A DNA stretch of 64,000 nucleotides, taken from Raillietiella orientalis. Lineage: Eukaryota. The notes below the pieces were generated by a model. That model did no database searches. It had not been told where the DNA came from and was given only the letters and a program-made list of their open reading frames with translations. Shown piece after piece: positions 730-23,565 of this stretch. The stretch's first letter is position 1, and every line of letters begins with the position of its first letter. Position numbers and translations under genes: made by a program. The stretch is from NCBI GenBank assembly GCA_036172245.1, contig JAYWIR010000055.1:1-64000 (forward strand). The letters are read 5' to 3'.

Positions 730-823
730 ACGACAACGGTGCACGGACGTGTTCTGTGTTGCTCCTCGAGCGTGATTCCTTTCCGTCTTCTTGTGTGTGG
801 TGTGCCCGATTGCGTCCACTAGG

Positions 824-2653
824 ATGTCCACGGAGCCCCTGCAGCAAAAGATGGATGTGGAGGCTGCTACTGGCAGTGGAGACTCTACTGCAGATGTCCG
901 GTCCGCCTCTGATTCTTGTGTCTCGCCACCGGCGAGATGCTTCGCCGCCGTCGTCAAGGCGGCGGCAGCCAACGGAGCACCGTCCGACGAAGCAGAGCTG
1001 CAGGCATATGCAGCCCATGGCTACAAGCCTGCGCTCTGCTCTCCGGTGAGTGCTTCTATCTCCGACGGTGTCGGAGAAAATTTGTTGGACGAGCTTTTGC
1101 GCGTCGGGGTCCGACAGGACGACTTCCTGGCCGTCATGCCGGTTAACGCGCTCGGACACTGGGAGGTGCACTGCAAAGAGGCCCCCCCAGTCCAGCGCCT
1201 TCTTCGCACCCGGCTAAATATCCGCGGGAAGGAGGTCGTCCCGTCGGCCATGGACCAGTCGTTCGTGGTCCGATTATCCGCCCTCCAGGTGGACACGCCC
1301 GATCGCGTGCTTGTCGCTGCAATAAGTGCATTAGCCACGGTGCATGCGCTGTGGAGAGCAGATAATCCGATCAAAAGGATTGCATCTCTCCACAGCGGAG
1401 TTGCCATGGCGCGTGTCACCATGGCGGATAGGAGGCAAATGCCTCCGCACTTGCAGATCGGCGATGCGATCTTCCACCTTGAATTTGCTGGTTAGCGACC
1501 GGCTTGCGGCATTTGCGGTGCAGAGGGCCACCGTCCGTGGACGTGCCCTTCACGCAACTGCCGCTATTGTAAACAGCTCGGCCACTCCATCAAAGAGTGC
1601 GCGGAGCTGAAGAGCAAGCGGCAGGCGAAAAGCCGCAAACAATCGACCCCGTTTGCGCCGAAAAGATCCCCCGTTGTGCCACGGGAGAAATCGGGCGCGA
1701 AGGGCGGGGCATTTTCGAATGGAGGTCCCGCGAAAAAGGACGCGGCGGCTTCAGGGAAGCCACCATCCCAGACAACCGCGCAGACGGGAGGAATGCCACG
1801 TCGTCCTGGGGGCAAATCGCCATCTTCGAAGCAGCCTAAGAGTGCGGGCACGCACTCAATCAAGGCTGCTGAACCGTCCGCGTCCGCTTGTGCGTCCAGC
1901 GGAGCACACGGGAAACCGTGCGCGGGTACCCTCGGAACTGCCTCTTAACGGCAGTCTCCTCCTACGGCGGTGGAGATAACGTCTTCCACGCCGAAGGCAC
2001 GAGCATCGAAGGCTGCAATAGCGCCCCGCGGGACGACGGCAATGACCGCCGTTTCGCCTGCATCGGCTAAGGAGCAGGTGCAGTGCGCAACGGGGACGGA
2101 GACGTCTCCCGCCGCGAGCGAGAAACGTGAGCCGGCATCTCCGGCCAAACAATTGAGGGAGGCGTCGGCCTCCCAGGAGGGCGTCCCCGACGCGGGCTGG
2201 ACTCGAGTCTCCAGGACGCCCACAAAGGGGAAGAAGAAGGTTGACCCTTCAATATTCCCCATCCTTAAGGTGGGTGGGAGGCAAAAGAGAAGCACGCCGA
2301 AGAAGGTGCGTACCCAGGTACGCACTACGGCGGCGTGCTCTGTCTCCGTCGCTTCGCGCGAGAGGGCGGCTGCGGAAGCCAAAGCTCCGGAAGCTGCGTT
2401 GGCGACTGCGACGACCCCTGCGCGGGCAGGGCAAGCCTCCACCTGCCGAAACAAAAAGAGACTGGCAAAACGCCAGTCTCGCGCCAGGCACTCGGACTTC
2501 GAGGTGGAGTCCGAGTGCAAACAAATGGAGCGCGTATCCCGGGGTAAGCCGGTAGCGCGCCGGGCTAAAGTGCGAAGGCACGAGCCTGTTCCCGGAGGCG
2601 GTTCCGGCTCCTGCACGGAGACCGAGGCGATGATCCTCGGCTCCCAGGACTAA
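824..2653 (+). pseudogene. Element A ORF1 (gag-like, two CCHC zinc knuckles, long basic Ala/Ser/Lys tail) with two in-frame stops
   Basis: ORFs 791-1495, 1676-1948 and 1970-2653 are in one frame. Reading through TAG 1493-1495 gives CGICGAEGHRPWTC and CRYCKQLGHSIKEC. A second stop, TAA, is at 1946-1948. Confidence 0.85.
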
Positions 2654-2751
2654 GCTGGGCGCGATGTGGCGGCGAACGGGAGCGATTCCGCTTCCCAATC
2701 CGCTCTCCCACCAGCTGACTTCTTGCCGGACGGGGCGAGGAGCACGCCGTC

Positions 2752-5700
2752 ATGTCCGCAGCAGTGATGCGTGGACTCGCGTCCGCTCGTCGCGTCAGCG
2801 TGGCCTGTTGGAATGTCAACGGGCTACGTGATGCTGACAAAAGGCGGACGGTAGCCAACGCTTTGCGCGCGTTCGATCTGGTGCTGCTGCAGGAGATACA
2901 TATCATCTCCGAACGGCAGGCATCGGATCTGGAAGAGCGCGCGGGCGGGACGCTACACTGGCGGCCAGGCTCCGCGCACACGTGCGGAGTCGCGTTCCTC
3001 GTCCGAGGCAGGGTGGCGAAGGCGGTGCGGAACGTTTGTTCCGACGAGGAAGGTCGTGTGGGCCAACTTGTCCTCAAGTGGTCCGAATCGATCGATCTGG
3101 CCGTTACGAACACCTACGCGCCGAGCGGCGGCCGGCATTACGCCCAGCGACTTGCATTCCTGGGTGGCCTGCGCAGCCCCTGGCTCGCTGACTCCGGCCC
3201 TAACGTGGCGCACCTCCTTGCAGGAGACTTCAACGTCCACCTGCTAACAGAGGAGAGATGCCGCTTGAGGGAGAAGCAACTGGTGAGCGAGGTATGCGCG
3301 TCCGTGCGCGTGCAAAACTGGCTTGCTGGTGAGCCCGGGATGGAGAGATCGCCGGAGCATGCGTTCCTCGATGAACACCTGCTCTCACGAGTAGGTCGGA
3401 GAGGGCGCCTGCTGTCCACGATTTCGGATCATCCGAGACTGGAGTTCGAGCTCCTCCCGCCTGGCAAAGGGCCTCCGATGAATGTCTGGAGGTTGCCGGC
3501 CGACTGGCTTAGCAATTCGGAGGCGGCGGAGCATCTTCGCCAACACCTTCGGGGCTTCGCCATCCGTGAACTCGAGGACTGGGACGATCTGAAAAGATCG
3601 GTCCACGAGTTCTGCTGCCGGTTCCCTTTGCACCTGCTTCCCCGCGGCTTCGGGGAGGGTGTCGCGAACAGCAGATCCTATCTGCAGGCGCGTACCTTCT
3701 CCCGATGCCCGGACGTCCGGCGTCTGGCGGAATACAAGGCCAGGGCCGAGCGCCAGGTTTGGCAGTCTGGAGCGGCTTGTCTGCTCGATGACGCTGGACA
3801 GAAATGCACGGCTGCAGCCGAAGTACACCGCGTAGTCAAGCGCTACTACTCCTCGTTGTACGCGGAGGAGCCCACGGAACGCAGTCTCTCCGAGCTGCTT
3901 CTTCCGACGGGAAACCCTGCTATCGACGAGGAGGAACGCGCCAGATTGGATTGGTTCTTCACGGCGGAAGAAGTATCTTTTGCCATAGCGGGCCTGAAGG
4001 GGCGTAAGGTGCCTAAGGAGGATGGCCTGCCCGCGGATTTCTTTCAGTGCTTCGCGGCGGAGCTCGTCCCTCTGGTGCTAAGCCTTTCCTCGCTGATGCG
4101 TGAGACGGGAGATGTTCCCGCTTCTTTCCGCTCAGCAAAGGTGCGGCTCCTGCCGAAAGGCGGTGATTTGCGCCACCTCAGCAACTGGCGTCCGATCACA
4201 TTGGTGAATTCGGACGTCAAGTTGTTCTCCAGGCTATGGGTCGCGCGCCTGGGGAGAATCGCGGAGTCCTTGGTAAGTCCGGAGCAGACGTATGCTGTTC
4301 CGGGGCAGTCCATGGACGCGAATCTCTTCTTCGCGCGAACATGGTTCGAGTTGCAGCAGCGCGTGTCGCAGCAGAGCCAGGCAGCCGAAATCGCCACTGC
4401 CAAAGGTAAGCGGCGGTGTTCAAGGCACGATGGAACAACGGGAGCCTTAGCGGTCGCCGTCGGTCTCTGCAAAGCGTTCGACAGCGTAAACGAGGACCTT
4501 CTTCTGGAGCTTCTGGGACGCCTAGGCCTCCCGACGCACCTCATCGCCTACTTGCGCTCCTGCTGGCGCCACGCGTTATGCTGTATCTCTTTCAGCGGGC
4601 GCCACGTGTACGGCATTCCCATACGGCGGGGTATCAGGCAGGGAGACAGCTTATGCCCCCTGCTCTTCAGCATCTTCTTTGAGTTGGTGCTGAGGGCGTA
4701 CAGGCTGACGCTGGCCAACCTGCCGAGCTCCTGCCCGGGAACACCGGCCGTGACCGCCTATGCTGAGGACCTTCTCCTGCTGCTGCCCATGTCCACCCCG
4801 GCGTCCAGGCTCGAGGACTTCTTCGAGCTCATTCGTCGGGGAGCGGGCCTGAGCGTCAACAGGACGAAATCAACCGTTCTACCGGTTGGCTGTACGTGGG
4901 AGTGGCAGTCCGACTGGATCCGCCTGGGGATCCCAACGGGCAGGTGCTTGAAGTACCTCGGCGTTCCCTTGGGCGCCTTCTGTCCAGCAGAAGCGTGGTC
5001 GGACTGCCTTCACAAGGCCGAGACCGCTCTGGGCCCGTTCCAAGGCGGCAGGTTTCTCCTGTTGGAACGGGCCTTCGTGTGGAACATTTTCGTTGCCCCC
5101 CTCCTCCGTCCCCTTTTTTTTGTTTGTCCCCCTCCCTACTCGGCTAAGCGCCGGGCGCAACGCCTGTTGCGTGACGCCCTGTGGGGACCGGCGAGGTCCA
5201 GGATCCGCCTGAAGAACTTGGCAGCTCCTCGGCGGGATGCAGGATTGGGCATTCTGATGCTGGAGCGGGTCGGACTGCTAGTGCAGTTCCGCATGCTGGC
5301 ACTTTGTGCGCAGATCTGGACTACTCCCTGGTGTGCTCCAGCGCGGCTGCTGCTGCAGCGCAGCACGGGTGGCGACGGACTACGTTCGTTGCATGTGCGC
5401 ACGGAGCGCGCCCAGAGAGGATTCGGATTCCCTTTGAAGCAGCTCGCCACGCTTGTGGGAAAGCATGAGTAGATCTCCTGCCGGCCGACGAACTTCAACG
5501 CCTGGAGGCAGGAAGCCTTATCGTCCTGGGCAGCGCAACAGGATGTGTCCCGTTTGGAACTCCGTTGCGCGAAACTTTCCCCATACTGTACAGTGGGGGA
5601 GGTGCTGGAAGACCAGGACCAGTGGACACGCCTAGCCGCTACGCCACTCGCCGAAGCACTGTGTGCACTTATGCTGCGAGATGACAGTGACCTGCCGGCG

Positions 5701-6330
5701 AGGTGGGAGATCACTTGCGAAATCGCAGGCGGAACCCGACTGCAGGGCGGCTGGCGGACTTGCGAAGTGGCAGACGCTGCTACACCTCGCATTCTTACAA
5801 AGGGGCTTCTCCGGTATAGTGAGCTCCTCGGGGTGCCCACCGATGAACTTGTGGTCCCTTCTGCGTGTTTGGACGCGACTCTTTTCCCCCTTCGGTGGAA
5901 GCAGGACGCCTTTCTGCTGGTGCATTGGGGTTTGTACTGCAACCAGCGGGCGCACCTGATTTCCGGGGAAGTTGCGTCCCCGAACTGTGCCAAATGCGGA
6001 GCGTTGGAATCGCTCCCGCATTTGCTGTTTGAGTGCGGTGCTCTCCAGGAGCTGTGGCAGCGGCTGTCTTCAGTGCTCCTGCACCCTGGACACACCGCAC
6101 TGGATTGGATGCGCCGCTTCTACACGCGTGGCGCACTTTCTCTTGGAGCGGTCGTCGCAATCATCTGCTGCGTCCGCGCCATTGTCAGGGCCCGCCACGT
6201 ATTGCAGATGCGAGCAGTCCCAACATCGGTCCCCGACACCTCAGCCTGCAGCCTGCAAATGGCTGCCGGTTGGCCACATCTTGGAGCAGAAGTGAGGACG
6301 GAGATCGGCGGCATTCACTGCCGGTTCTGA
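2752..6330 (+). pseudogene. Element A ORF2: AP endonuclease + reverse transcriptase + C-terminal zinc finger, with one in-frame stop
   Basis: EN motifs WNVNG, LLQE, NTYAP, GDFN, SDH. RT motifs WRPITLVNSD, KAFDSV, GIRQGDSLCPLLF, YAED (for YADD), KYLG. C-terminal CAKCGALESLPHLLFEC. TAG 5470-5472 replaces the TGG seen in the copy at ~25109, and the frame continues into 5545-6330. Confidence 0.93.
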
Positions 6331-6544
6331 GAATAGGAACGGTTAGACTGTATACCCCTGTCCCCGCCCTCCCAACCAATTTATTTATTTATTGTCTCAC
6401 CCCCTCCCGTTCCGAACTCTCAGTGTGCCCGGACTGCGTTCCGGGAAATCTACTCCCCATTTTTTGTTTCCCTTGCGTGGGAACACAGTTCCCAGTTAAT
6501 ATTTTAATAAACGTCCCGGCGCAACCGGGTAATAAACGACAACG

Positions 6545-7732
6545 CTGCATTCTTTAATTTGCTCGCTTGCCTGCTCTTTTTTCTGGAGGTACGCGAGCTT
6601 TTTCTCCATCCTCCTCTTCTTCTTTGATTTTTTGGCCGTAGCCACCTGCCACCAAGGCTCCTGGCTAGTTCCCTCGACTTGTTCGGCGTTGTTCGCCGGC
6701 GTCTCGGGTGCGGTCTGGGCCTTGGGCGCGGGTGGCACAGCCTTCGCGGCAGCTTTCGCCGCCAGCCTTTTCTGCAGAAGCCGGGCGCGTTTTCTAAGGT
6801 TTCTCTTGGAAACCACCCGCACTGCTGCTTTTGAACACACATCCCTCGTGTGACCCATTGTGCCGCATACTTGGCACTGCACATTGGGACACCTCTTTTT
6901 GAGGTGGCCCGACGTATTGCAGAAGCCACAGTATTTCGGCTTTCCCACATACCAGAGGTCGACGGTTTCGCCTTCGACCACCAGTTTGTGGGGAAGAGTG
7001 CAGCCCTTTCGAACGGTCACGCGCGCAGCCGTGAGGCCGTGTTGCAGCCCCGTGTAGTCCTCGAAAGGACTAACTTTCGTCCACTGCGCGTGGACCGTTC
7101 CGTATTCCTCCAACGCGGCGCGAACCTGTTCCTTGCGCATCCGCGCGGTAACACCTAACAGGTGGACCACCATGCTGCGGTCCGCCGTAATAGGGAGGAG
7201 CCTGCGCGTTCCCATCACCACGGGGGTTTCAAGCAGTCGTTGGGCCATCCCTGCATGTTTGCAGATGACCCCAACGTACTGACCCCCGCTGCGGATGGTC
7301 ATAGCGCTGAGCTCCTCCTCTTTCACATCGAGAGCGCGCATGCCCTTCGAGAAGGCACGCGCGCTCTCTAAAGAATATAAATTGCCTACCTTGTAGAACA
7401 ATGAGGGGTTGTACCCCTCCTCTACATAGGCCGACAATTCCGCCGCGGCTGCAGGCGATGGCGCCGACACAACGGCGCTCCACGCCCGCGCTGCAGCGGG
7501 GACCGATTCTGTGGGGGCGGATGCCCCCACCTCCATCGCCTCTGGGGACGACGTTGCCGCCGCCCCCTGGCTTTCCATCGCCTCTGGGGGCGGCGTTGCT
7601 GCTGCCCCCTGGCCATCTCTGGTGGTCGCGTCAGGCATTGCTGCCTGATCGACCACCGAACCACACGACGCTTGCACTGGGGGAGACCCTTCGGCACGAG
7701 GAGCACCGAGAAAACACGTCCACCCTGGAGCA
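6545..7732 (-). mobile_element. Tx1-like element B: 5' UTR and ORF1 (interrupted by element A)
   Basis: ORF1 from ATG 7638 with knuckles CGFCNTSGHLKKRC and CQVCGTMGHTRDVC. 5' motif GGACGTGTTTT at 7721-7711. The 5' boundary is set where plus-strand RT homology begins. Confidence 0.88.
7530..7613 (-). repeat. 42-bp tandem duplication in the B ORF1 N-terminus
   Basis: Encodes QGAAATPPPEAMES followed by QGAAATSSPEAMEV. Coordinates approximate. Confidence 0.75.
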
Positions 7733-9840
7733 CGCAAGGCGGTCGACTGCGTGGACCAGGAGCTCCTCCTGGAGCTTTTGCATAGCAAGGGCTTCCTTCC
7801 TACATTAACGGCGTACCTGCGCTCCTGCTAAAGAGCCGCGTTAACAAACATCTCTTTCAGAGGGCAGAACGTGTACCGCGTGCCGGTGCGCCGCGGGATT
7901 CGGCAGGGCGATAGCCTCAGTCCCCTGCTCTTTAGCACCTATTTCGAGTTGGTGCTGAGAGCATACAGGATGACTTTGGCTGCCTTGCCAAGCTCGTGCC
8001 TTGGCACGCTCGCCGTGTCCGCATATGCCGACGATCTCCTGCTACTGCTCCCAATGTCCGCCCCGGCAACGGTAGTCGAATATTTCTTCGACTTGCTAAG
8101 CCGTGGGACAGGGCTACGGGTCAACAGGGCAAAATCGTCGATGGTGACAGTTGGAGCGACGTGGGTAGGATGGCCTGACTGGATCTGCCTGGGGACCCCG
8201 ACTGACACACATCTGAATTACCTTTGCGTTCCGCTGGGGGACTTCTGCCCGTCAGAAGCATGGTCAGGCCGTCTTCAGAAAGTGGATTTGGCGATCCGCC
8301 CGTTCCTGGACGGCAAGTTTTACTTGCCGGAACGGGCCGCAGTATGGAATGCTTTTGCGGCTCCCATCCTTTGCCCCCTACTTTTTGTTTGCCCCGTCCC
8401 CAGAGAAATAAAAAAGAGGATTAAGGACCTCCTGCGCATTGCCCTTTTGGGCAAGGGGAGGCCCCAAGTCCCTTTGATGGACTTGTGCGCTCCGCGTCGT
8501 GATGGTAGTCTAGGCCTCCTGACGCTGGAGCGCATGGAAATTCAGCTGCGATGGCGCACCCTAGCCATTGCAGCAAAGACGTGGAACACCCCCTGGTGCG
8601 TCCCGGCCCGCATCCTCGCCAGCCGTGTACCGAGGACGCAAGGACTCGCGTGTTTCCTTCTGTGCCCCGGTCGGAAGGTTAGAAGATTCGGCCTTCTCTT
8701 TGGGTGCATGGAATCCCTGGTGAGAGAGAACGGCTGGACGGTATGCAGCCCCGCCAACTCCTCCGCTTGACTGGAGGAATCCGTTGGGACGTGGGCCAAG
8801 CTGAACCTCCAGACTGGACGTGAATGGAACCGCCTGCGACACGGCCCCAGAGCCTGCTGCACCATACGGACCACTCTGGAGTGTCCCGCCCGGAGCACGT
8901 GGGCAGGGACCACCCTTTGGCTCCGACCCTGCCCTTCCTATGAAGGGCTCTAACCAGCGGCCGGACGCCGAAGTGGCACGTCTCCTGCCGGATCGCAGGC
9001 AGGGAAAAGAAATTGAGCGGTTGGACCATGGGTGAACTGGCAGATGTTACGACCCCGAGTGCCCTCCCGCGTGGACTTGTTAGATGGGGCGAGCTGCTCG
9101 GCATCGCTGCCGCGCAGTTCTGTGATGACCTCAAGTGGGCCCCATTATTAATCGGATCCAGGATTCTCCCGCTAAAGTGGCAAGAGTCGGCACTGCTGCT
9201 GTTGCACTGGAGTTTACCCTGCAACGCGCACCGCTTCCACTGGACGCGTGGAAGTGTAAGCCCTGAGTGGGCCAGGTGTGGGGAGCGGGAATCGCTCCCC
9301 CACCTACTAGTTGACTGTGCTGCCATCCGACCCCTGTGGGAACGATTCGGGACGACCCTCGGGCCCCCAATGGGCAGCGCGCCCAGAGACGTTCTTCGGC
9401 CCCTCTTCGTGCGGGACGCCCTGCAGCCCGCCGCAGCCCTCGCAGCCCTCTGCTGCATCGTGGCGGCCTGGGGCGACATTTGCGACGAAGGAGTGGATGC
9501 CAACGAGAGGGAAGTCATCCCGTATGCTGTGAGCTTCATGCGAAGAGCTGGGAGATGGCCCCATCTGGGACAAACGCAGAAGGACCTAGAGGGCATCCTG
9601 CGAAGGATGGGCCCTCCTCCTAGTGAACAGTGGTCCCTTCCCCTCCCTCCAAACTCCTTTTGTTTTTCTTTATTTTATTTTATTTTTTGTTTTCTTCCAA
9701 ACTCCCCTCCACTGCCGAGGAGCGTCACGCCGGGCTGCGTCCCGGCGTCCCGGCAGGTCCGGTGTTGTGCGGCCGTTAGTGGAGCCTCGTACCACGTTTT
9801 TGTAGAGTTTTAATGAACGACCCGGGCGTACCCGGGTGGC
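7733..9840 (+). mobile_element. Tx1-like element P: 3' half (RT domain onward to 3' UTR), decayed
   Basis: RKAVDCVDQELLLELL..., GIRQGDSLSPLLF, YADD, C-terminal ARCGERESLPHLLVDC. Stops at 7829 and 8768 plus frameshifts. 3' hairpins at 9727-9748 and 9820-9837. Confidence 0.9.
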
Positions 9841-12490
9841 AACACCAGATCCCCGGGGCAAACGGTGCACAGGGAACTCCTCGCAGAACTCGCGGACCCT
9901 GGCTTTCATGCGGTCCCAGTCTTGGAGATTCCGGAGGATGACGCCTCCCAGTACTTGGCGGAGATGTTCTTCCGCACCTGAGATGCGCGTCCAGTCCCCG
10001 GGCAGACGCCACGCCCTGGATGTTGGTCCTTTGTCGCGAGGCATAACCTCGAATATCAACCGGAAATGGTCCGATAGCGTCGACGGAATTTTCCCTCGTC
10101 TGCCGACCCGTGGGCACAGGTCGGCCTCAAGGAAGACGTGGTCTACGCTTTGGACCATTTCCGGTATGTCTCTCAACAAGTTTTGCGTGCGCATGACAGC
10201 CCACAACACGCTGGCTGCGTGTCTTTGCCCGCAAGGCACACCTGAGAGCTGGCGGATGTTAAAATCCCCACCGATCAGATGTGCCTTGCGTACGTTTGTA
10301 TCAGCCAGTTAGTCGCGCTTCAGAGTTTCGAGGAACCGGAAACGTTCCCCGTACACGCATCTAACTCTCGGAGCGTACACGTTCGTCAAGACAAGGTGGA
10401 TCGAGTCGGAGCACCTAAGGATGAGCTGGCCAGCCGTCTGTCCTTGTCGAAGCGTACGCCCTTGACGACGGCGGTGACTGCTGTCTTCATAAAAAACGCC
10501 ACGCCACAGGTGTTGAGAGCGCCGCATTGTTAATACAGACGACGCCCTGTGATCCTCTCGATCTCCTCGGCGCTATCCCTGGCGATCACGTGGATCTCCT
10601 GCAGGAGTGCCAGGTCGAAGTCACGCACGGTATCGGCCGTATCCCGCCTGTTGCCGTCGTCGCTCATCCCGTTGACGTTCAAGCAGGCTATGCCGATCCT
10701 ACGGCGACAGGAGAGCCGAAGTGCTAATCCTTGGAAAGTGGCAATGGGACTTCCGTAACCTGGTCGGGCGGGAAGCTAGAAGGATGGGGTGCGTCGCGCA
10801 CGGCTTCGCGCTCCTCCATGGGGGTCGAATCGTTAGCAGGGCCGTGAATAGAAAAGGGGGATTCAATCACCTGTACTTCCTATTTCATGGAAGTCACCAG
10901 CTGCACGGTATCGGAAAATGAGAGATTCCCACCCTCCTCTCCCACACTGCTGGCTTCCCCCTCGGGTGCCGCTTCATTCCTCTCCTTGGTCCGGATGCGC
11001 CGCCTGTGGTTCTTCTACTTGCTCCCCGTCTTCTTTGGTGGCGACTCCGCTGAGGAAGACACACTTCCAGCATCCGGATCGGCCTCACCTGCCTTCGGAG
11101 GCTTCCTCACGGCCGGCCTTCCTGAGGCTTTCCGCGAGTTCTTCTAATGGCCTTGCAGTTCAACCGCGAGTTCTTCCACCGCCTAGAGGAAAGTGGCCTC
11201 CTCGAGCACGTCGGGCGCGGCAGGCGGTTCCCCTTCGGTATCCCCAGAGGGTTCGCCATCCACCGTCGTGGCTTCGGCGGACGCGAGGGGGGGAATTGCT
11301 CCCCCGGTGGCGGCATCGAGTGCCTCCTCACGCTCTAATTTCACGAAACACGCGCGGAGTTTTTCGCGGCACGGTTTTTCGCGCTGCGTTTTTGTTTTCC
11401 TTGCGTTTCTTTCGGGAATCCCGAGTTTTCTTCTTGGCGGTACCCTCTGCCAGCCTTCGCCGTTGCCAGCGTCGTCGGGAGTGCTCTCAACCGACGTTTG
11501 CTGAGAAAGTTTGTGGACTGGCATCTGGCTTTTTACAGCCCGTTTCAAGTTATTCACATCTCCCTCCTGTTTTTCCTTTCCCTCTTTGGGAGCGGGTGGG
11601 ACCTTGATTTCTCTTCTCGGGCTCACCTTGCGAATGGGGCTTTTATTTCCACATAAGTGGCATTGGATGTTTTTTTAGGTCCCTGTGGCATCGCAATCGC
11701 CACAATACTTGAGCTTTCCAAGATACCAAACATCGACTTCTTCTTCATCGATGTTTAGTTTGTGGGGAAGCCCACCATTCTCCGGTAATGTGACACGGGA
11801 AGCATCCATCCCACTGAATAGCCGTCCGTAAGTTCGGAAGACATTAGGTTTGGCCCAATAAGCGTGCACATTACCGTGTTTTGCCAATTCCTCATGGACT
11901 TCGCTTTTGCCCATTCGTAGTGTGACTCCTGTGAGGTGGACCACGACGGAGCGGTTCTCCGTCACAGGGAGGATCCTGCGACCGTCCACCTTAATGGGGG
12001 TGTTCAGCAGGCGCTTCGCCAGACTTGCATCTCTGCAACTCAGCTCGACTCGTCCCCCACTAAGGACGGAGAGGCCCTCAAGGTCTTCCTCCCTTACGTT
12101 TAAACTTTGCAGCTCCATTTCGAAGGAGCGTACAATTTTCTCATCGAATACACTGCCTACCTTATAGATCAGCGACTGTTTGTAGCCGCTGTCCATGTAG
12201 GCAGTCTGCTCCGCAACTGCAGCCGGGGATGGTGCGGCAACGACGGTACCCCAACTCCTCGCCGCTGGCGAAGAGGTTTGCGAAGGGGTGGTTGCCCCGG
12301 ATTCCGTGGGGGCAGATGCCCCCACTTTCATGGATGTAGGAGAGCAAATCGCCTCTCCTCTCCCAATTTCCATCGCGGTGCCCTCAGGCATTTCTGCCAT
12401 AGGATTACGGCGCTCCCGCACACCAGACAAAACCAACGAAAAGCTTTCCACTAACTAGACAGCGGTGCGATGCCAAAATACGTCCGCTCC
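9841..12490 (-). mobile_element. Tx1-like element C: 5' half (5' UTR, ORF1, endonuclease), decayed
   Basis: ORF1 from ATG 12400, frameshifted at the knuckle (CGDCDATG). EN remnants LNVNG, NVYAP, GDFN, TLSDH at ~10700-10050. 5' motif GGACGTATTTT at 12485-12475. Confidence 0.88.
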
Positions 12491-13100
12491 CTAGACGGAC
12501 ACGGGGGAGAGTCAACCTTATTTGTGTCAGGTGCGGGGAGAGAGAATACCTCTCCCACCTGTCATTGCATTGTGTTGACCTCCGGCCCCTGTGGGAACGC
12601 TTTGCCGCGGCCCTAAGTATATCCGGAGGCAACCCCAGAGACGCTTTGCGCCCCCTCTTCGTCCGTGACGCCCTGCCTCCGACGGCCTTGCTTGCAGTCC
12701 TGTGCTGCCTACGCGGGATCGTCGTGGCATGGAGCAAAGCGACGGGAGGAACCGGTGACAGGGATGGTAGCGAATACGCCGCCCGCTTCATGGGGATGGC
12801 GACGCGATGGCCCCATCTGGAACCAAGTACCCATCAACAGCTTGCCGGCATCCTCCAAAGGATGACGGACCCTCCCAGCAGATAGTGATCTCTTCTTCTT
12901 CCCTCCACAATTTGGTTTGGTTTTTTATTTTCTTTTTGTTTCATTCCCCCTCCCCTCTGCTGCCGAGGTCGGCCGCACCGGTCTGCGCACCGGGTGCTCG
13001 GCAGGCTGATAGTTTCTAGGGCATGGCTGGTCTACTGTTGCAGCCACAGTTTATATAGGTTTGTTCGCAAGAATAAACGTCCCGGCGCAACCGGGTTTCA
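12491..13100 (+). mobile_element. Tx1-like element Q: ORF2 C-terminus and 3' UTR
   Basis: CVRCGEREYLSHL..HCVDLRPLWERF...RWPHL, homologous to P. AATAAA plus terminal hairpin CCCGGCGCAACCGGG at 13081-13095. Confidence 0.85.
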
Positions 13101-13104
13101 ACTG

Positions 13105-14800
13105 AAACCGCAGAGCCGTCGCATGAAAACTGCGGCAACGACGCGAGCAGCAGCGACGAGAAAAATTTCGAGAAGGCGGCGGAGGAATTAGCGGCGAGCT
13201 TAAAAAGGAGGTGTGTGGTAGATGCAAAGTGAGGGGTGGGAAGCGGTTGTTCTGTTTTTGGCTCGCTGGAAAAGAATTTTGTTGTGTGGAACTATCTGTG
13301 GTGTGTGAACCGCTCGCCACAGGTGGAGCTTCGCATGGTGTTTCGATCAAATCGGAGATGTTTTCGAGGAAGCACACTTCAGTGGAATATTTTTCGCTAA
13401 AGGAGTTGCGGAAGCACGGATGCAACCGTTGAGGGATAGCTTCTCGAAGGGCACAAGTTGTTCTAAGGAGAATATAAGGTGGGTTTTGGGCAGTAATAGG
13501 ATACTTTGTAGTTTCTTCTAGAGATGAAAAAGAGATACTGCAGTTTGGTGGAGACACAGAAAGGCATGGTTCGAGGGAAGAGTTTGTCTCAGGATTAGAT
13601 TGAACAGGATTAAATGGGGACTGAATAAATGCCTCATTCTTAAGTTTTTCCATTCGAATAGGGGAAGAGCGAGCACTAGAACGTGCAGGAAGTTGTCTTG
13701 TTATTGGGGATTTCCTGCAGGCTGAAGATGATTCATGTTCCCAGCTCGGGAGAAAGCTATGAAAAGATTTCCTAGGCATTACTCGGGCTGGCGTTTTAAG
13801 ATGTCTGCATATGAGGAAAGAGATAACGGAGCTTTCAATGTGGCAGATGGAGTACCACCACTAGGGTTAAGTGTTGAACGGAGTTTCTTGGTCATCGGAT
13901 GAATATCTTGTTTGCTCTCTATCTTCGAAGTAGCGTCATCGTGGGAGCATGCAGAGAATTGGGCAGAAATTTCGCTTCGAATTTCCAGAGGGATAGGTTG
14001 AAACGCATCTTCATTATCCAAAAAATTTTCACAGCTTCCTCAGGAGAAGGAGAGGATGGATTCGCAGCGTGAGTCGCAGGGTTAAAAGAGGTTGTTCGAG
14101 GATGTCGCTCGAGGTTGTACATGACGCTGTTTGTGAAGATTGAAGGAAGTTTGAGTCTTCTAGGGATTTAAGCAGGATATCGTCTCCCAGCTGTTCAAAA
14201 AACTCTGAATGACTTGGGCCGGCTTACTCATCAAGAAGTTCAAACTCAGATAGTTTCTTAAATTTTGATGTGCCATGCACACTTTGGTTGTTCTTCACGC
14301 GAAAACCTTTGCGGTCGAAGCTAGAGGGACAGAACGTACAGGGAAACTTTAAATTTTTCAGGGGGAGTGGAAGTTCTAATGCTCGAATGGATTGAATGCA
14401 CTTATGGGAAGCAAGAGAATATTTCAGAGGGTCGGCAGTAAAGTTGCATTCATTACAAAAGTAAAAAGTAATTTGGGGGTTTACACCATGGATGCGTGAG
14501 ATACGGTGCTTCAGGCTTCTAAAGCGATTGTAGGTTTCTTCAGCTGAGGAAGCAAACTTCTATCTCTCGATCGGACATAGGCATGGTCGTGGGAGGGAAA
14601 CACGTAGATATAGGCATCTGTCGGAGTCTAAGAAATTGGGCTTGGAAGACGGCTTTAAATTTTCCATGCTGCACATGTCATGAGACAAACAAAATTACAT
14701 CGGACATAAGGTCAGTGGACATCCTTAGGAATTACTGCGAAATCTTCAGAAGTTCAGACGCGATCGCAAGCGCCATGGACATGGTAAAAAAGAAAGTTTT
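13105..14800 (-). mobile_element. 5' fragment of a probable R2/NeSL/Utopia-type non-LTR element (three N-terminal zinc fingers + Ser/Pro-rich linker), decayed
   Basis: From ATG 14667(-): ...CPIER*...SLKHRISRIHG, FCNECNF...ASHKC, FPCTFCPSSFDRKG...VHG, followed by broken S/P-rich ORFs (14122-13051). No RT is visible, so the clade call rests on the zinc-finger layout only. Confidence 0.5.
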
Positions 14801-15316
14801 CCGGAAACGAGAGACAGCGCGTGAATACTCCTGTATACACTAGCAGTATATATGCGCAATACAGGTACGCTACCATGCCTAGCGCGCGGTGCGTATGTTT
14901 TACGAGCATGCCATGTGGCCGCGCCGCCATCTTGGAAAATATCGCACATTCATTCAACATCAGGCATTGTACGTAAACCCACTTTTCATGCACAATATTG
15001 CAAAGCATCAAATGTTTTGAAAATGAGCGCAAACTTAGCATAAATCAAACCTATGCAATGTCTTGATAGCGACAAAGCAAAAACTCTTACCTTGGCCAGC
15101 CAACAGCTCTCTAGTTAAACTATAGCAGCTGCGGGCGACCAGAGGGAAATCCGTATTTTCGCAACACTAACTAACGTATCACGCTAATTTTCCGTATACA
15201 GCTAGAGTACGTATATAAATATTAGAAAACAGTAAATGATCACAAGTCGTGGCGAGAAAAGTTTTGAACACTACTTGAACTTCTACATAGCGGAGCTAGG
15301 TTCAAACACGTCTTGC

Positions 15317-16887
15317 CGTACAGGCTAACGCTGGCCAACCTGTCCAGGAACTCCGGCCATGGCCGCCTATGCTGACGACCTACTTCTCCTGTTTCCCATG
15401 TCCACTCCGGCGTCCAGTCTGGAAGATTTCTTCGACCTCATCCGTCGGGCAGCGGTCGTGAGCGTCGACAGGACGAAATCCCTCGTCGTGCTGGTTGGCT
15501 CTACGTGGGACTGCATCCGCCTGGGGATCCCTACGGGCAGGTGCTCTAAGTACCTCGGCGTTCCCTTGTACGCCTTCTGTTCAGCAGAGGCGTGGTCGGA
15601 CCGTCTTCAAAACGTGGAATTGGCGATCGACCCGTTCCGGGACGGCAAGTTTTACTTGCGGGAACGGGCCGCGGTGTAAAACGCCTTTGCAGCCCGTCTC
15701 CTTCGCCCCCTACTTTTTGCGTGCCCCCTCCACAAATTATTACACGGACAAGGGGCCTCATACGGAAAGCCCTCTGGGGCGATCGGAGGCCCCGCGTCCG
15801 GTTTAAAGACTTGTGCGCTCCCCGCAGAGACGGTGGACTTGGTGACTTGGTCTCCTGAAGTTGGAGCGCATAGAGCGCCAGCTTCAATTTAGAAAACTTG
15901 CCCTTGTGGCAAAGTATTGGACAGCACCCTGGTGTGCGCCGACAAGACTCCTCGCTCACAAGGCAACCGGCTGCTTCGGATTGACCTCAATCCTAGTAGC
16001 CAACGACCGTAGCCTGAACCATTGTGGGTTTCAGCTGCGCGATTTGGTTGCCCTGTTGAGAGACAATCCTTGGATCTCCTGCATCCCTGCGGACTGGACT
16101 ACCTGGCTCCTGGAGTCCGTTTCCGCGTGGGGGAAAATAAACGGCTCTAGCGATGAGGACTTCTCCTGCCTCCGTAGAGGCAGGTACGCTGGTCAGCCAC
16201 TGCAGGAGATCGTTTGCAACCCACGGAAACTTCTGTGGGCTTCCTTCACCCCCCTTGCCCCCGTGCTGCCCTTCCTTACAGAAGCTAGGGACAGCCAAGA
16301 GGAGGCTTGTTACGAAGTGTCTTGCCTCATCGGAGGCAGGAAAAAACCAATGAAGGTGTGGACTTCCCGGGAACTAGCGGACGCTACAACCCCAAGTGTC
16401 CCGCCAAATGAAATTGTGCGCTGGGGCGAGCTGCTCGGCATGCCTCCGGAGGAGGTGAAGTGGCCCCCGGCGTATTGGGACAGTGGCACCCTCCCTTTGG
16501 ATTGGCAGGAGATGGCGCTGCTTGTGCTCCATTGGATACTTTTGAGAGGAGCACGCCTGTCTCACTGGACATTGGGGAGATTGGATGCCCATTGTACAGT
16601 GTGGGGAAAGGGAGACCTTTCCCACTTAATAATCGAATGTGTTGCCCTCCTCCGCACGTGGGATCGACTCTCGTCGGCCATAAACGTAGCGGTGGGCGAC
16701 CCTAAAAACATTTTTCGTCGCCTCTTGATGCGGAACTCCCTGCCAGGTGCCGCGTGTGTTGCGATTCTCTGCTGCATACGAGGAATGTTGGACAAGTGGA
16801 ACGCGTCGATAAGAGGCCACAGTAGTCTTTATTATGTAATTTTGTAAACAGTTATAATAATTAATGCCCCGGCATATCTGGGTGATA
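15317..16887 (+). mobile_element. Tx1-like element D: 3' half of ORF2 and shortened 3' end
   Basis: AYADDLLLL, KYLGVP, TAPWCAP, WGELLG. Stop at 15677. Ends CCCGGCATATCTGGGTGATAA. Confidence 0.88.
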
Positions 16888-16899
16888 AACTTTCAGTCA

Positions 16900-18563
16900 T
16901 GGGGATTCGCTGAGGATCCCCACAGGCGCGTACATCAGGTACTTTGGCGTTCCACTGGGGACTTCTGTCCAACAGAATCCTGGTCGGTCGGTCCGCCTGT
17001 AGTTGGCAATCGGCCCGTTCCTGGGAGGCAAGTTTCACTTGCCGCAACGGTCCGCAGTGTGAAACGCGTTTGTGGCCCGCTTCCTTGTCCCCTACTTTTT
17101 GTTTGCCCCGCCCACCCAACATGGAAAAAAGCACGGAGGACCTCCTGAGGAAAGTCCTTTGGGGCACAGGGAGGTCTTGGGTTCGTTTAAAAGACTTGGG
17201 CGCTCCACGCAGGGACGGTGGACGCTGGAGCGCATGGAGCTGCAATTTCGAAAATTCGCCCTTGCGGCGAATTTGTGGACAACGCCATGGTGCGAACGCG
17301 CACTCCCCCTCCCCAGTAGAGCGACCGGCTGCGAAGGATTGCCTTCGACTGTCGTGGCCTACGACCGCAGCCTGAGGCACTGTTGCCATCAGCTGCGCGG
17401 CATGGTTACCCAGTGCAGGAGAGCACGTGGATCTCCTGCGTCCTCGTGAACTGTACTGCCTGGCTTCAGGAGCGTCAGTTTCCGCATGGGAAAAGATCAA
17501 CGGCTCGAGCGAGCCGGACTACGCATGCCTCCGTAGAGGCAGGTACGCTGGACAGCCCCTGCAGGAGATTGTAAACAACCCACGCAAGTTGGGCTGTGGG
17601 CTTCTTCTACCCCCTTGCCCCCGTGCTGTTCTCCCTCAGGAACGCTAGGGACAGCAACGAACGAGCATCGTGGGAAGTGCCCTGCCTCATTGGAGGCAGG
17701 AAAAGACTGTTCAAGTCATGGACAACTCGGCAGCTAGTGGATGCTGAGACCCCGAGCGTCCTGCCTAAAGGACTTCTGCGCTGGGCGAGCTGCTCGGAAT
17801 ACCTCCGGAGAATTTGAAGTGGCCCCCAGCGCGTTAGGACAAAGGCACCCTTCCCCTGAAGTCGCAGGAGACGGCGTTGCTATTCTTGCATTGGGGAATC
17901 CTATGCAGAGTGCGCCTGTATCACTGGACACTGGGGAATGTGGATGCACGCTGCATCGAGTGCGGCGAAAGGGAAACCTTTCCGCATCTGATAATAGTCT
18001 CTGTTGACCTCCGTGTAGTTTGGGATCGGTTTTATTTGATCCTACAAATTCCGGTAGGCAATCCGAAGAACATTTTCCGCCGCCTCTTCCGGAGTGATGC
18101 CCTGCCCATAGCTGCATCTGTAGCAGTTTTCTGCTTGCTACGCGGAATCCCTGCAAGATGGAACGCATCAATAAGAGGCCACAATAGCAGGATGCCATCC
18201 ACTTGGCGTCCATGGCCTTCATGAAGATCGCCGCCCGATGGTCCGACTACGGAACATTCTGTCAACACTTGTCAGCATCCGGAACAGGATGCAGAGGAGC
18301 ACTCCAGGTGACCGTTGATCTCTTCCCTGCCCTCTTCTCCCCGAAAAAACATTTCTCTCCTTTTTTTTGAATTTTTTGTATATTTTTTTCCCTGGTTTTC
18401 TCTTCCCCACCGTCTATAGAGAGGACCTCACCAGTCTGCTCACCAGTTAAGACAAGTGTTTCGCAAAGATGGAACCAAGCGTTCCACCTCAAACATTTTT
18501 ACGATTTTATTAAAAAATTCATGAAGTTCTAACAATAAATGCCCCAGCAAATCTGGGTGATAA
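16900..18563 (+). mobile_element. Tx1-like element E (same family as D): 3' part, heavily frameshifted
   Basis: Shares long nucleotide blocks with D (e.g. gcctccgtagag..ggcaggtacgctgg). CIECGERETFPHL. Ends AATAAATGCCCCAGCAAATCTGGGTGATAA. Confidence 0.85.
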
Positions 18564-18574
18564 ACTTCCAGCCG

Positions 18575-19008
18575 TGCGCTGGTCATAGACCCATCTGCAC
18601 TCGACGTTGCTGGACGAGGTTGCCCCGTGACAGCCATAGTTGCACGATTACGTCCTGAAGCTGCTGATGCTGTTGCTGCAGTAGGATGCTCTCGGAATCT
18701 CAGCGCAGGTTGAACTGAGAAAGAGTTCCTGGACCGAATGATCAATCTGCTCAGCTGTAGCTATGTTGTCCCTGTTGTCCAATACACCAAACAGTGCTTG
18801 CAGAAACAGGACACAGACGTATCTTGGGAACGCTACTTTGGGGTGAATGTTTTAGACGTGATCGTCATACTCTTTGGAGTTCTACCAGCTGTTCCCACCT
18901 ACGGTACAGAACGAAGAGGTCACAGGCAGCATGCATGCTGAAGGGCAGAACGACCCTGTCTTTGAATTCACTGTTTACTGCAAAGCCAATTGCATAATGG
19001 TGGTTTGA
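18575..19008 (+). pseudogene. NELFCD: Decayed 3' fragment of negative elongation factor C/D (TH1-like)
   Basis: Across stops and frameshifts: HSTLLDEVAP*QP*LHDYVLKLL...[96 protein letters not shown]. This is colinear with the NELF-C/D C-terminus as I recall it (LLDRMVHLLSRGYVLPVV...DTDISLIRYF...EGEHDPVTEFIAHCKSNFIM). Confidence 0.85.
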
Positions 19009-19204
19009 GCTCATCCGTGGATGCAAGTGCGAGAAAGATGAGATGGATGCCGCTGTTGTGACATGCCGGCAGAATGTCAACTTCCTTTCAGCACGACTTC
19101 CACCCTCCCCATCTCCAGATCTGGAGACAGGCATGATTCCGCATAACTGGAGGCTGTAACTGCAAAATCTTGTACAAATGACATTTTTATCTGGTTTCAG
19201 CACC

Positions 19205-19983
19205 TGTGATGCAGAGGTATGCTGTGGCCCCCAGCGTGCCGGAACAGTGCTACCCTCTTCCTAAAGTGGCAAGAGGCGGCAATTCTGCTGTTCCATAGAG
19301 GCCTCTCGTACAACGCCCGTTTACACCACTGGAACCATGGGGGGGGAGGTGAACCCCAACTGCGGCAGTTGCGGCGATAGAGTCCCTTCCGCACCTGCTC
19401 ATGGACTGCATTGCCCTACGCCCTCTGCGGCAGAAGGCGTCTTCGCCGAGTGCCTGGAGATCCCCAAGGGCAACCCCGGAGGAGTTTCGAAACGCTTCTT
19501 CCTGCGCGGCGCGTTCCCCCACGCCGGCCGCATCCCCAGCAGCCCTCTGCTTGCTACCTCCACGGCGGAACCGTGGTTGCGTGCAGCAATGCGAGAGGAG
19601 GCCAGGATGACAGGGACGCCAATTATTGGGTGCTCCTCTTCTTGATGGTAGCGTCAAGATGGCCCCATCTGGGAATCCTGAGACAGCGAAATTGCAGGCA
19701 TCCTGGCAAGACGCAGAAGACGCCCTCTAGCATCCGGTGATCCCTTCCAGAACATTCCCAATTTTTCTTATTTTTGTATGTATTTTTGCATTTATTTTTA
19801 TTTTTCTTTGTTCCACCTCCACCCTCGTTCCTTCTCTACCGAAAGCGAACTTTGCCGGACTGCATGCTGGCACTCGGCAGGTTCCCATGATTGCATTTGT
19901 GACGTGGTAGGGCCAAGCATCCTGCCATCGACATCTACGTTTATTTCATATAAATAGACACCCCGGCGCAACCGGGTGTCAAG
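19205..19983 (+). mobile_element. Tx1-like element F: ORF2 C-terminus and 3' UTR, decayed
   Basis: LKWQEAAILL, NCGSCGDR..PHLLMDC, RWPHL. Terminal hairpin CCCGGCGCAACCGGG at 19962-19976. Confidence 0.8.
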
Positions 19984-19989
19984 CCACTT

Positions 19990-20655
19990 GCTTTTGAGAA
20001 TTGCTATGCCTTCCAGGAACCATGGAGGAGGAAACTGGCAGCAGCACTCGTGCACCAGGAGGACACCGGTTGAGGCGCGCTGCGTCGGTTCTTCGCGCAG
20101 GGAGGACTCTCGACTAGTACGATGGTCGCAACGATGGATGGTTGCATCCGTACTATCATCACGGCCCGCCATGTGCTCGAGACGACCACGCAGCGAATGG
20201 AGGTTACCGGGATGGCAGACGCCTACATGGGTACGGCTGCAAAGTGGACTCACCTGCAAGAAGAAGTGAAGGAGGAGATGGCCGGCTCCTGTTTGAGGGT
20301 GGCTAGGAATGGCAGGCACCGGCGACCTTTGTCCTCTGCCTCCCTTTATTTTTTCTTCCCATTCCTCATTTCCATTCGCTCTGTTTCTTATCCAGTATAT
20401 TTTTTTTCGATCCTGATGTACACGGAGCCAACCCAAAGATCCCTGTCCCACCCCACTGCATTTATTTCATTCCATTTTATTTCTTTATTTATTTGTTGTT
20501 CCCGCTTCGCACTCCCGTGCCGGTCTTTCCGTTATCCCCGACCTGCGTGTCGGTGTACCCTTCCCTTAAACTTCTTTCGCCGTCGGCTGGGAACCAGCGC
20601 GCTCCCGACTGGTTTGTCTTTTACCAAAGGAACGCCCCAGTGCGACCGGGTGAGG
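19990..20655 (+). mobile_element. Tx1-like element G (A-related): ORF2 extreme C-terminus and 3' UTR
   Basis: CIRTIITARHVL...AAKWTHLQEEV matches A CVRAIVRARHVL...AAGWPHL. Hairpin CCGAC-CTGCGT-GTCGG at ~20538-20553. Degenerate terminal hairpin at ~20637-20651. Confidence 0.7.
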
Positions 20656-20845
20656 AACCTCTCCGTGCCTGTCCACGGATGAATCCGGGAGCTTTGGGGT
20701 TTCCCACATCCGCTTCTTCCGGGGAGGCGGTTGGGCTGCGTTCCTTGCACGCTGCGAGCAAATGCCTGCGACTCGCGGCGCGTCCTCGCAACCGGAAGTC
20801 AGACGGCGGCGACCGACGAAGACGGGCTTGGGAGGAAAGGGCGGG

Positions 20846-21796: not shown

Positions 21797-22480
21797 GAGG
21801 AAAAGGCAGGAGGGGGGATAACGGCGTGGTTACGTCGAATGGAATGCTCCCGAGACACGTCGGGGCAGGTCCGAAGAGCCGCTACTGTTTGCGGGGAAGA
21901 CAGGAAGGGGGAAGGAGGAAGAAAATGAGCTGAGGGTGCGCTTACGTTCACATCTGAGTACGAAAAAGGACTTCCGGGTTGTGCGGATTCCCCAGAGAGG
22001 TAGGCTGGACCGAGGAGGCGGACCTTCCCGAGCAAAAGCCTTCCCTGGGTTCCCGGAGACGGGAAATGGTGGAAAGGTGGGTGGATCCATCCAGTCGTCC
22101 GTACTTGCCGCAGGTAGCGCGGAACCGCGCCCGACCTGCGCACGCGCCGCGGAGTCGCAACCGACGGACACTCCCCGGGAACTTTGCTGGGCGAGAGAGA
22201 AAGTCCCGCCGCGTGTCGAACCGGAGGAAGTTCTCCGGTGATCCCGCAAAGGACACTCGGGATGCGCGGGAACGGGGCACGAAAGCTGCTTCACCTGCAG
22301 GCGGATGGCCCGTAGGCGAATAGCAGGGAGCTGTGTCCTTGCTTTCCGGCACTGGGAACGGCCATCGAGGGAATTCCTGGAGTTCTTCTGACCGCCTTGA
22401 GCGGAGTGCATCCACGGGGTTTCCGAAGGAGGAAGCCCTTGAGGACCTCCCGCGGGGAGAATTGAGAGAGACGAGACGAG
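21797..22480 (+). mobile_element. Possible low-complexity ORF1 tail of a further Tx1-like element (continues 20656-20845)
   Basis: GC-rich, broken A/S/R/K/P-rich frames similar in character to 1600-2650. No diagnostic motif. Confidence 0.3.
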
Positions 22481-23494: not shown

Positions 23495-23565
23495 AGGAGG
23501 AGGAGGATGGGAAGAGGAGGAGAGGGGGAGAAAGAGAAGAGGAGGGAGAGAAACAGAAGAAGAAT
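23495..23565 (+). repeat. Purine-rich (GA) low-complexity tract
   Basis: ggaggaggaggatgggaagaggaggagagggggagaaagagaagaggagggagagaaacagaagaagaa. Confidence 0.7.

Follow-up and report, generated by a model that had tools for sequence, protein, structure and literature searches.

A hairpin with the loop CUGCGY recurs in 3′ untranslated regions (UTRs) belonging to LINE copies gathered at one end of a 64-kb stretch of DNA, called the window below. Does this hairpin mark an RNA element kept by selection and, if so, what would read it? The first 26 kb of the window are a cluster of non-LTR retrotransposon copies, with a G+C content of 57% against 43% in the remaining window. A tblastn search of the 64-kb window with ORF2 of one copy, element A, found eight further 5′-truncated copies on both strands. 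Target-site duplications delimit two elements:

739–6535, plus strand: element A, a full-length L1-like LINE (from its target-site duplication, Pfam domains, ORF listings and translation)
25096–26174, plus strand: element A′, a 5′-truncated copy of the A family (from its target-site duplication)

The duplication is ACGACAACG for A (730–738 and 6536–6544) and AAACAACCCTT for A′ (25085–25095 and 26175–26185). As these duplications show, A (739–6535) was inserted at full length, and the copies were made by target-primed reverse transcription. The 3′ end of copy E adjoins an ORF2 fragment of copy G and therefore reflects a nested insertion. We conclude that the copies are true retrotransposed insertions, with target-site duplications of 9–11 bp and without an A-tail.

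ORF1 of element A (776–1948) carries one in-frame stop and a C-terminal pair of CX2CX4HX4C (CCHC) knuckles. ORF2 (2752–6330) comprises 906 and 285 codons with one in-frame stop between them; Pfam recognized Exo_endo_phos (APE endonuclease; 1e-11) and RVT_1 (reverse transcriptase; 2.5e-16), and although zf-RVT (0.01) fell below the cut-off, a C-terminal CX2CX7HX4C (CCHC) motif is present. Human L1 ORF2p was the best match to ORF2 among solved structures in the PDB (2.6e-38; R2, 4e-13). The nearest database relatives have an APE + RT + zf-RVT architecture and are mainly plant proteins where named; all are at most 29% identical, bar one protein at 61–63%, and a Protein Atlas look-up returned generic APE/RT clusters only. 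On the strength of its APE–RT–CCHC ORF2 and the best match to L1 ORF2p, the element is L1-like (L1 clade in the broad sense). The 3′ flanks of the nine copies are all different and ACGACAACG and AAACAACCCTT differ from each other, so no specific insertion target is evident. Target-specific insertion is described as a trait of Tx1 elements (PMC3472496).

Six CTGCGY-loop hairpins, here termed HP1, had been picked out in an earlier reading made from the letters of the window (the sequence-only reading), and a hairpin scan recovered every one of them at the positions given there. The six lie in LINE 3′ UTRs about 100–250 nt past the ORF2 stop, each downstream of an ORF2 C-terminal homology block detected by tblastn. 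Together with two divergent forms, they are as follows:

6428–6445, plus strand: HP1 of A, CCCGGA-CUGCGU-UCCGGG (hairpin scan and RNAalifold)
26068–26085, plus strand: HP1 of A′, CCCGGC-CUGCGU-GCCGGG; its loop is closed by C-G in place of the A-U of A
9727–9748, plus strand: HP1 of P, ACGCCGGG-CTGCGT-CCCGGCGT (hairpin scan)
12978–12993, plus strand: HP1 of Q, CCGGU-CUGCGC-ACCGG (hairpin scan)
20538–20553, plus strand: HP1 of G, CCGAC-CUGCGU-GUCGG; at the second pair, A-U replaces the G-C of the other copies
20930–20947, minus strand: HP1 of H, GCCGGG-CUGCGU-CCCGGC (hairpin scan)
19853–19872, plus strand: HP1 variant of E, UGCCGG-aCUGCAUg-CUGGCA, followed directly by CUCGGCAG at 19873–19880
18430–18447, plus strand: degenerate HP1 of F2, ACCAGU-CUGCUC-ACCAGU, in which four of six stem positions pair

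HP1 or a variant is present in eight of the nine copies; copy F (3′ end at 16890) has lost the region through an internal deletion. A pyrimidine-rich tract (64–78% C+U) lies upstream of the hairpin in 8/8 copies. Scanning the whole window for CTGCGY-loop hairpins with stems of at least 4 bp gave eight, two of which (7197–7212 and 63228–63241) fall outside LINE UTRs. Raising the minimum stem length to 5 bp gave seven, compared with 0.50 on average and 3 at most in 300 dinucleotide-preserving shuffles of the window, an enrichment that, since the hairpin copies are homologous, excludes coincidence and nothing more. The hexamer CTGCGT by itself showed no enrichment in the window (37 observed, 27.8 expected).

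The sequence-only reading had overlooked a second hairpin, HP2 (CCCGG-CGCAA-CCGGG), which is present in all nine copies, including F, the copy without HP1. HP2 sits at the very end of the element, and the nine-copy consensus for this end reads AAUAAA-CG-CCCGG-CGCAA-CCGGG-U, then 6–7 nt. The features of the 3′ ends, with one hairpin lying between HP1 and HP2 in the A family, are:

6479–6493, plus strand: middle hairpin of A, GGGAAC-ACA-GUUCCC; the A′ counterpart is at 26119–26133
6506–6511, plus strand: AAUAAA-like hexamer of A, just 5′ of HP2, as in the nine-copy consensus
6515–6530, plus strand: HP2 of A, CCCGG-CGCAA-CCGGG plus U; the 5-nt tail AAUAA separates it from the target-site duplication
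26156–26171, plus strand: HP2 of A′
9820–9843, plus strand: HP2 of P, ACCCGGG-CGUA-CCCGGGU, with tail GGCAAC
13081–13102, plus strand: HP2 of Q, with tail UUCAAC
16868–16890, plus strand: HP2 of F, CCCGG-CAUAU-CUGGG, in which one pair is G-U, and tail
18543–18565, plus strand: HP2 of F2, CCCAG-CAAAU-CUGGG, with A-U in place of G-C, and tail
19962–19983, plus strand: HP2 of E, and tail; this is the end that adjoins copy G
20636–20658, plus strand: HP2 of G, CCCAG-UGCGA-CCGGG, in which one position is an A-C mismatch, and tail
20845–20867, minus strand: HP2 of H, CCCGG-CGUAC-CCAGG, with one C-A mismatch, and tail

A 16-mer covering HP2 is common to A, A′, Q and E, and a 25-mer to A, A′ and Q. 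HP1 lies about 60–95 nt upstream of HP2 and about 90–130 nt from the 3′ end. At the position of the middle hairpin, the other families carry different hairpin-capable sequence. The target-site duplications place the element end 5 nt after the post-HP2 U in A and 3 nt after it in A′. None of the nine copy ends has a poly(A) tail past HP2, and none has a terminal array of short repeats; the tails are AAUAA, GGCAAC, UUCAAC and similar.

The AAUAAA-like hexamer is conserved 9–10 nt upstream of HP2, about 25–30 nt from the element end, and about 25–30 nt is the usual spacing between such a signal and the site of cleavage and polyadenylation. This distance suggests a polyadenylation signal encoded by the element, which would form the 3′ end of its own transcript. 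The hexamer, together with the pyrimidine-rich tract 5′ of HP1 in 8/8 copies, is what would be expected if HP1 served RNA metabolism, that is, 3′-end formation, stability, export or localization of the LINE transcript. We regard such a role for HP1 as improbable. The genomic copies have no A-tail, so reverse transcription starts at a defined internal point and needs specific recognition; moreover, elements read by host factors would not be expected to remain confined to the LINE families.

We then asked how far sequence comparison supports a structured RNA. The ORF2 C-terminus is 28–38% identical in amino acids between families, so neutral sites between them should be randomized (A′ and A share 88%, with dN/dS of 0.52 in this region). 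We aligned eight whole UTRs (A, A′, P, H, Q, E, G and F2) with unguided MAFFT. The HP1 loops came into register, with CUGC invariant in 8/8, and RNAalifold on this alignment returned two helices, HP1 and HP2, and no others. Mean pairwise identity across the UTRs of six families was 0.47, rising to 0.81 over HP1 and 0.84 over HP2 and falling to 0.26–0.33 in adjoining sequence. Across HP1 and HP2, 90.9% of cells were paired compared with 82.0% in shuffles (reached by 1/500), and the covariation score was 0.292 compared with 0.116 (1/500), whereas sliding the partners by 1–3 columns gave at most 0.088; because the sampled copies are related to each other, these shuffle p-values overstate significance. 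The sequences compared are 8–9 related genomic copies, of which some have decayed, and all lie in one 24-kb cluster; they are not family consensuses.

Three HP1 pairs change on both sides, as the sequence-only reading had held in stating that the loop is kept while the stems covary. The loop-closing pair is CG in two copies, GC in two, UA in two, AU in one and unpaired in one (E); it is Watson–Crick in 7/8 (exact permutation p = 0.0012; p = 0.011 when each family contributes one copy). At the outermost pair, A and A′ have C-G where P and H have G-C, and the second pair of G differs by a transition–transition double change. The double change from A to A′ at the closing pair, A-to-C and U-to-G with pairing maintained, also stands, and within about 25 nt on each side of HP1 these two copies differ by that change and one flanking base, and no more. 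The description of A and A′ as near-identical does not: their ORFs are 93% identical, and their UTRs differ by 23 mismatches and two one-base gaps over 207 nt. On this alignment the covariation signal lies above shuffles, and compensatory changes keep the stem around fixed loop bases, with moderate support from eight copies.

These data also bear on the view that HP1 has no function as RNA structure and persists through common ancestry, exchange of modules by template switching or action as a DNA-level site (CCGG palindromes, an antisense promoter or a factor site), the double changes being chance. There are just eight related copies, and the four central pairs of HP1, the CCGG core, hardly vary; being invariant and palindromic, this core looks paired anyway and is uninformative on pairing. 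The G-U pairs (HP1 of E, HP2 of F) are balanced by A-C mismatches (HP2 of G and H), so that the strand cannot be told from them, and folding, described below, does not favour HP1. Against this, conservation is limited to two short islands, and the spacer between HP1 and HP2 is unalignable, which argues against recent module exchange. The closing pair occurs as four Watson–Crick types with 7/8 copies paired, and G has its transition–transition double change at pair 2. Decay of CCGG by deamination does not appear dominant, given a CpG observed/expected ratio of 0.91. Overall, we consider an HP1 without structural function rather unlikely.

Recurrence at the same UTR position across diverged families, a conserved loop and pairs that change on both sides make selection on RNA the best reading, in agreement with the sequence-only reading. 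We therefore favour, tentatively and at somewhat less than an even chance, the interpretation that HP1 is a selected cis-acting RNA element forming half of a two-hairpin 3′ module in L1-like LINEs that lack poly(A).

In some families HP1 may be enclosed by a further helix. The sequence-only reading had noted CTGCCGAG before HP1 in P (9712), Q (12960) and H (20957–20964, minus strand), able to pair with CGGCAG after it:

9712–9756, plus strand: outer helix of P around HP1, CUGCCG (9712–9717) with CGGCAG (9751–9756)
12960–13004, plus strand: outer helix of Q around HP1, CUGCCGAG (12960–12967) with CUCGGCAG (12997–13004)

The two strands are indeed present in all three copies. P and Q have the CUGCCGAG/CUCGGCAG helix, and E has it with two mismatches. 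In H, where CUGCCGAG lies upstream of HP1 at 20957–20964 on the minus strand, CGGCAG overlaps the 3′ arm of HP1 and makes the outer helix and HP1 mutually exclusive. The overlap arises because H lacks the 8 nt that are tandemly duplicated in the 3′ arm of HP1 in P (GCGTCCCG). The CUGCCGAG/CUCGGCAG helix is absent from the UTRs of A, A′ and G.

Thermodynamic folding gave a less favourable picture of the local hairpins. The six intact HP1s are stable in isolation (−5.7 to −14.9 kcal/mol). Minimum-free-energy folds of 131–148-nt fragments (z-scores −2.87 to +0.55) contained HP1 in one of eight copies (G) and HP2 in three (P, E and F2). In whole-UTR ensembles of A, A′, P, H, Q, E, G and F2, in that order, mean pair probability was 0.00, 0.00, 0.13, 0.00, 0.05, 0.16, 0.71 and 0.00 for HP1 and 0.00, 0.00, 0.99, 0.00, 0.08, 0.24, 0.00 and 0.11 for HP2. 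These low values arise because the arms of HP1 and HP2 share CCCGG/CCGGG and can cross-pair.

Such cross-pairing could itself be the functional structure, with the arms of HP1 paired to those of HP2 and local HP1 a by-product or, in a variant, with the 5′ half of HP1 and the 5′ arm and loop of HP2 closing a domain of about 100 nt. Pairings of this kind occur in the minimum-free-energy folds of A, A′ and Q, and the ensembles of A, A′ and H give the local hairpins a probability close to zero. However, while 80.0% of arm-swap cells can pair, so can 79.4% in shuffles (216/500), and the arm-swap score of 0.093 compares with 0.074 in shuffles (59/500), nothing beyond conservation. This lack of covariation in the swapped arms means that covariation favours the local hairpins. 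In addition, the A-to-C change at the closing pair of A′ is compensated inside HP1 and not in HP2, and in G the two stems differ from each other, so the swap is unable to form. A functional long-range fold therefore seems to us a poor prospect, at about one chance in ten.

A related idea is that HP1 and HP2 constitute one switch, alternating between two local hairpins, possibly joined by a loop–loop kiss, and the long-range fold. Its basis is the common stem CCCGG/CCGGG and the complementarity of the HP1 loop UGCG to the HP2 loop CGCA; the HP2 loop CGUA of P and H pairs with UGCG through one wobble. We considered loop–loop pairing as a candidate and rejected it: 28/32 cells were pairable, with no two-sided change, and shuffles did equally well. 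A switch is the least probable of the readings considered here. If one existed, its toggling could control whether reverse transcription starts or the RNA is instead translated or packaged; to our knowledge, a regulated 3′ RNA switch of this kind is undescribed for an L1-like LINE.

We looked for the module in other sequences. Covariance models recovered just their training copies (nine for HP2, eight for HP1; next best E = 1.5 and 0.86, respectively), so no SINE with an HP1/HP2 tail, and hence no partner SINE, was visible in the 64-kb window. The comparison with Rfam proposed in the sequence-only reading returned no family for the hairpins: there were no matches at gathering score in the whole window, and of four matches at E up to 5 over 6300–26300, none overlapped HP1 or HP2. 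A scan with an HP2 20-mer pattern gave two viral and 20 metagenome loci, without LINE ORF2 homology (best tblastn E 0.11). Eighteen of the 20 metagenome loci are GC-rich and by eye resemble bacterial coding DNA, and the remaining pair, L015 and L020, are one short contig, which also gave the viral matches; in L015 the match lies within a 307-aa opposite-strand ORF and has no HP1. We regard all of these as chance matches. The HP1 loop combined with the HP2 pattern gave no match in viral contigs and 82 prokaryote loci, all with bacterial record titles, which we likewise treated as chance. From one DNA sequencing run, X1 (word share 0.17), 416 contigs were placed on 5400–21200, of which 305 were less than 90% alike; the run carries related LINE DNA, mainly below 90% alike and in short contigs. 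Among 40 of the 1296 rows comparing X1 with the window, no difference lay inside a hairpin.

If HP1 and HP2 form a selected module, then by analogy with better-studied LINEs it probably lets the element's own proteins recognize their own RNA. The ribonucleoprotein of the element would recognize the module in a stringent manner. HP2 would position the 3′ end of the RNA at the active site of the reverse transcriptase, target-primed reverse transcription would begin a few bases downstream of HP2, and HP1, by way of the exposed and invariant CUGC bases in its loop, would contribute specificity or affinity. As HP1 is degenerate in F2 and missing from F, it may be dispensable in the F/F2 lineage; alternatively, the F/F2 copies may be dead.

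Which protein would read HP1 is a separate matter; the sequence-only reading had proposed ORF2p as the probable partner. Retroviral nucleocapsid knuckles bind hairpin loops (psi hairpins), and two CX2CX4HX4C knuckles lie at the C-terminus of ORF1 in copy A. HP1 might therefore be an ORF1p packaging signal whose G-containing loop is bound by these knuckles, leaving HP2 alone for the reverse transcriptase. HP1 conserves its loop bases (CUGC in 8/8) and HP2 its stem, which suggests two different readers, and copy F retains HP2 without HP1. On the other hand, ORF2 likewise has a C-terminal CCHC motif, and the ZfL2 stem-loop is bound by ORF2 (PMC4176376). By analogy, ORF1p knuckles would be a serious alternative to ORF2p as the reader of HP1, and we rate packaging by ORF1p as unlikely but the foremost competitor to the recognition module favoured above.

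Conserved 3′ hairpins are established in other LINEs. In UnaL2, retrotransposition depends critically on a conserved 3′-tail hairpin (PMC1636434), and in ZfL2, ORF2 binds the stem-loop through a defined basic region (PMC4176376). The elements described here resemble both in having a short conserved 3′ UTR hairpin and genomic copies without poly(A), and, by analogy, in the likely role of letting the element's own reverse transcriptase pick its template. UnaL2 and ZfL2 belong to the L2 clade, whereas the present element is L1-like and has no L2-clade ORF2; they have one hairpin, whereas here two are conserved about 60–95 nt apart, with HP2 terminal; and they end in TGTAA-type repeats, whereas here there is no terminal tandem repeat and no partner SINE in the window. 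The sequence-only reading had likened HP1 to the 3′ stem-loop of UnaL2. HP2 is the better counterpart because it lies 3–5 nt from the end (A and A′) and is found in 9/9 copies, including F.

That reading had also called such an element unexpected for the L1 clade, which overstates the case, as stem-loops of the stringent type have already been published for this clade. Ohshima 2012 reports that a monocot L1-clade lineage (the LINE1-1_ZM group) conserves a 3′ hairpin whose stem shows compensatory changes, describes the L1-1_CR/SINEX-3_CR tail pair in Chlamydomonas, and puts forward stringent recognition as the ancestral state of the L1 clade (PMC3472496), a proposal repeated in a 2013 review (PMC3747384). 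Stem-loops in the 3′ UTRs of human L1 and Alu are the subject of a further study (PMC5135761). The monocot L1 elements share with ours a 3′ hairpin with compensatory stem changes and a conserved loop, read there as a sign of stringent recognition, but have a poly(A) end, the loop UCU and the 3′ flank CGAG (PMC3472496), in contrast to the loop CUGCGY, the stem core CCGG, the second, terminal hairpin and the missing A-tail here. R2 elements of Bombyx and other species offer a different likeness: a multi-helix 3′ UTR recognized by protein, a defined 3′ start and no A-tail (PMC11194090). R2, however, has a restriction-like endonuclease and rDNA specificity, and ORF2 here matches it far more weakly than it matches L1 ORF2p; we found no sequence or Rfam similarity to the R2 3′ UTR.

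The copies in this window thus share with stringent-type LINEs a 3′-end stem-loop, a stem kept by compensatory changes around a fixed loop, and a defined tail without poly(A). We conclude that their anatomy is that of a stringent-type LINE, with no A-tail, a defined end just past a terminal hairpin and an upstream hairpin conserved in its loop. The principle is already known; the motif, a CUGCGY hexaloop on a CCGG stem with a terminal CCCGG hairpin, is absent from Rfam and from the literature consulted here. If confirmed, it would represent another L1-like lineage, possibly outside plants, with sequence- and structure-specific 3′ recognition independent of poly(A). It would also fit the proposal that the L1 clade started out with stringent recognition and later relaxed it (PMC3472496), and would provide a compact two-hairpin RNA for testing against ORF1p and ORF2p. 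The HP1/HP2 module is a plausible addition to the known stringent-type 3′ hairpins.

Between the stop codon of ORF2 and HP1, the hairpin with a CUGCGY loop in the 3′ UTRs (untranslated regions) of these L1-like LINEs, all eight UTRs carry a pyrimidine-rich tract with a C+U content of 64–78% (6331–6427 in the full-length copy A). The order within this tract runs from C-rich sequence to a U-rich run (TTTATTTATTT) and back to C-rich sequence. Between HP1 and HP2, the second conserved hairpin near the 3′ end of the element, copies A and A′ can form a further, perfect hairpin:

6479–6493, copy A: middle hairpin GGGAAC-ACA-GUUCCC
26119–26133, copy A′: middle hairpin GGGAAC-ACA-GUUCCC

At this position, a GGGAAC/GGAAC motif is common to copies G and F2, and unrelated small hairpins are possible in the remaining families. 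The middle hairpin may be a third element, structural but without conservation of its sequence.

Copy P contains an 8-nt tandem duplication, GCGTCCCG × 2 (9737–9752), through which the stem of HP1 is extended to 8 bp and set apart from the strand of the outer helix, the pairing that encloses HP1. Copy H has a single copy of these 8 nt, and HP1 and the outer helix consequently overlap there.

Several copies abut one another. At 16868–16910, the 3′ tail of F (…CTGGGTGATAAACTT) directly adjoins the 5′-truncated start of F2, which belongs to the same family and has the same tail at its end. The F–F2 arrangement is a head-to-tail tandem, which would arise by insertion at the element's own tail or by a template jump between RNAs. 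A fragment of another LINE copy begins exactly at the end of the P 3′ tail, indicating a nested insertion:

9844–10715, minus strand: APE-domain fragment

Similarly to this fragment, an ORF2 fragment of G is adjoined by the tail of copy E (19983). G and H are in convergent orientation, with approximately 190 bp between their 3′ ends.

Two minus-strand ORFs, at 6496–7788 and 1–666, show homology to the ORF1 of copy A (28% identity over 167 amino acids, E = 4.5e-16, and 30% over 171 amino acids, E = 2.2e-11), and more LINE copies therefore lie on both sides of A. Contigs from one DNA sequencing run matched 6736–7470, with just 12–14 differences per 317–366 nt.

The LINE cluster (1–26200) has a G+C content of 56.9%, compared with 43.1% in the rest of the window (26201–64000); the respective CpG observed/expected ratios are 0.93 and 0.86. 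Among the ORFs scanned, the sole non-LINE ORF with a Pfam match was:

43426–44244, plus strand: ORF of 272 amino acids carrying a SAM-dependent methyltransferase domain of class I (Methyltransf_23/11/25, E of about 1e-14)

Outside the window, the viral or metagenome loci L001, L002, L015 and L020, matched by the HP2 sequence pattern, are one short contig (2.2–4.4 kb) from four samples. We rejected this contig as a LINE relative. Its HP2 16-mer is a chance match within a 307-amino-acid ORF of the opposite strand, and a lysine-rich ORF of 310 amino acids adjoins the latter. The contig looks like a small virus-like genome.
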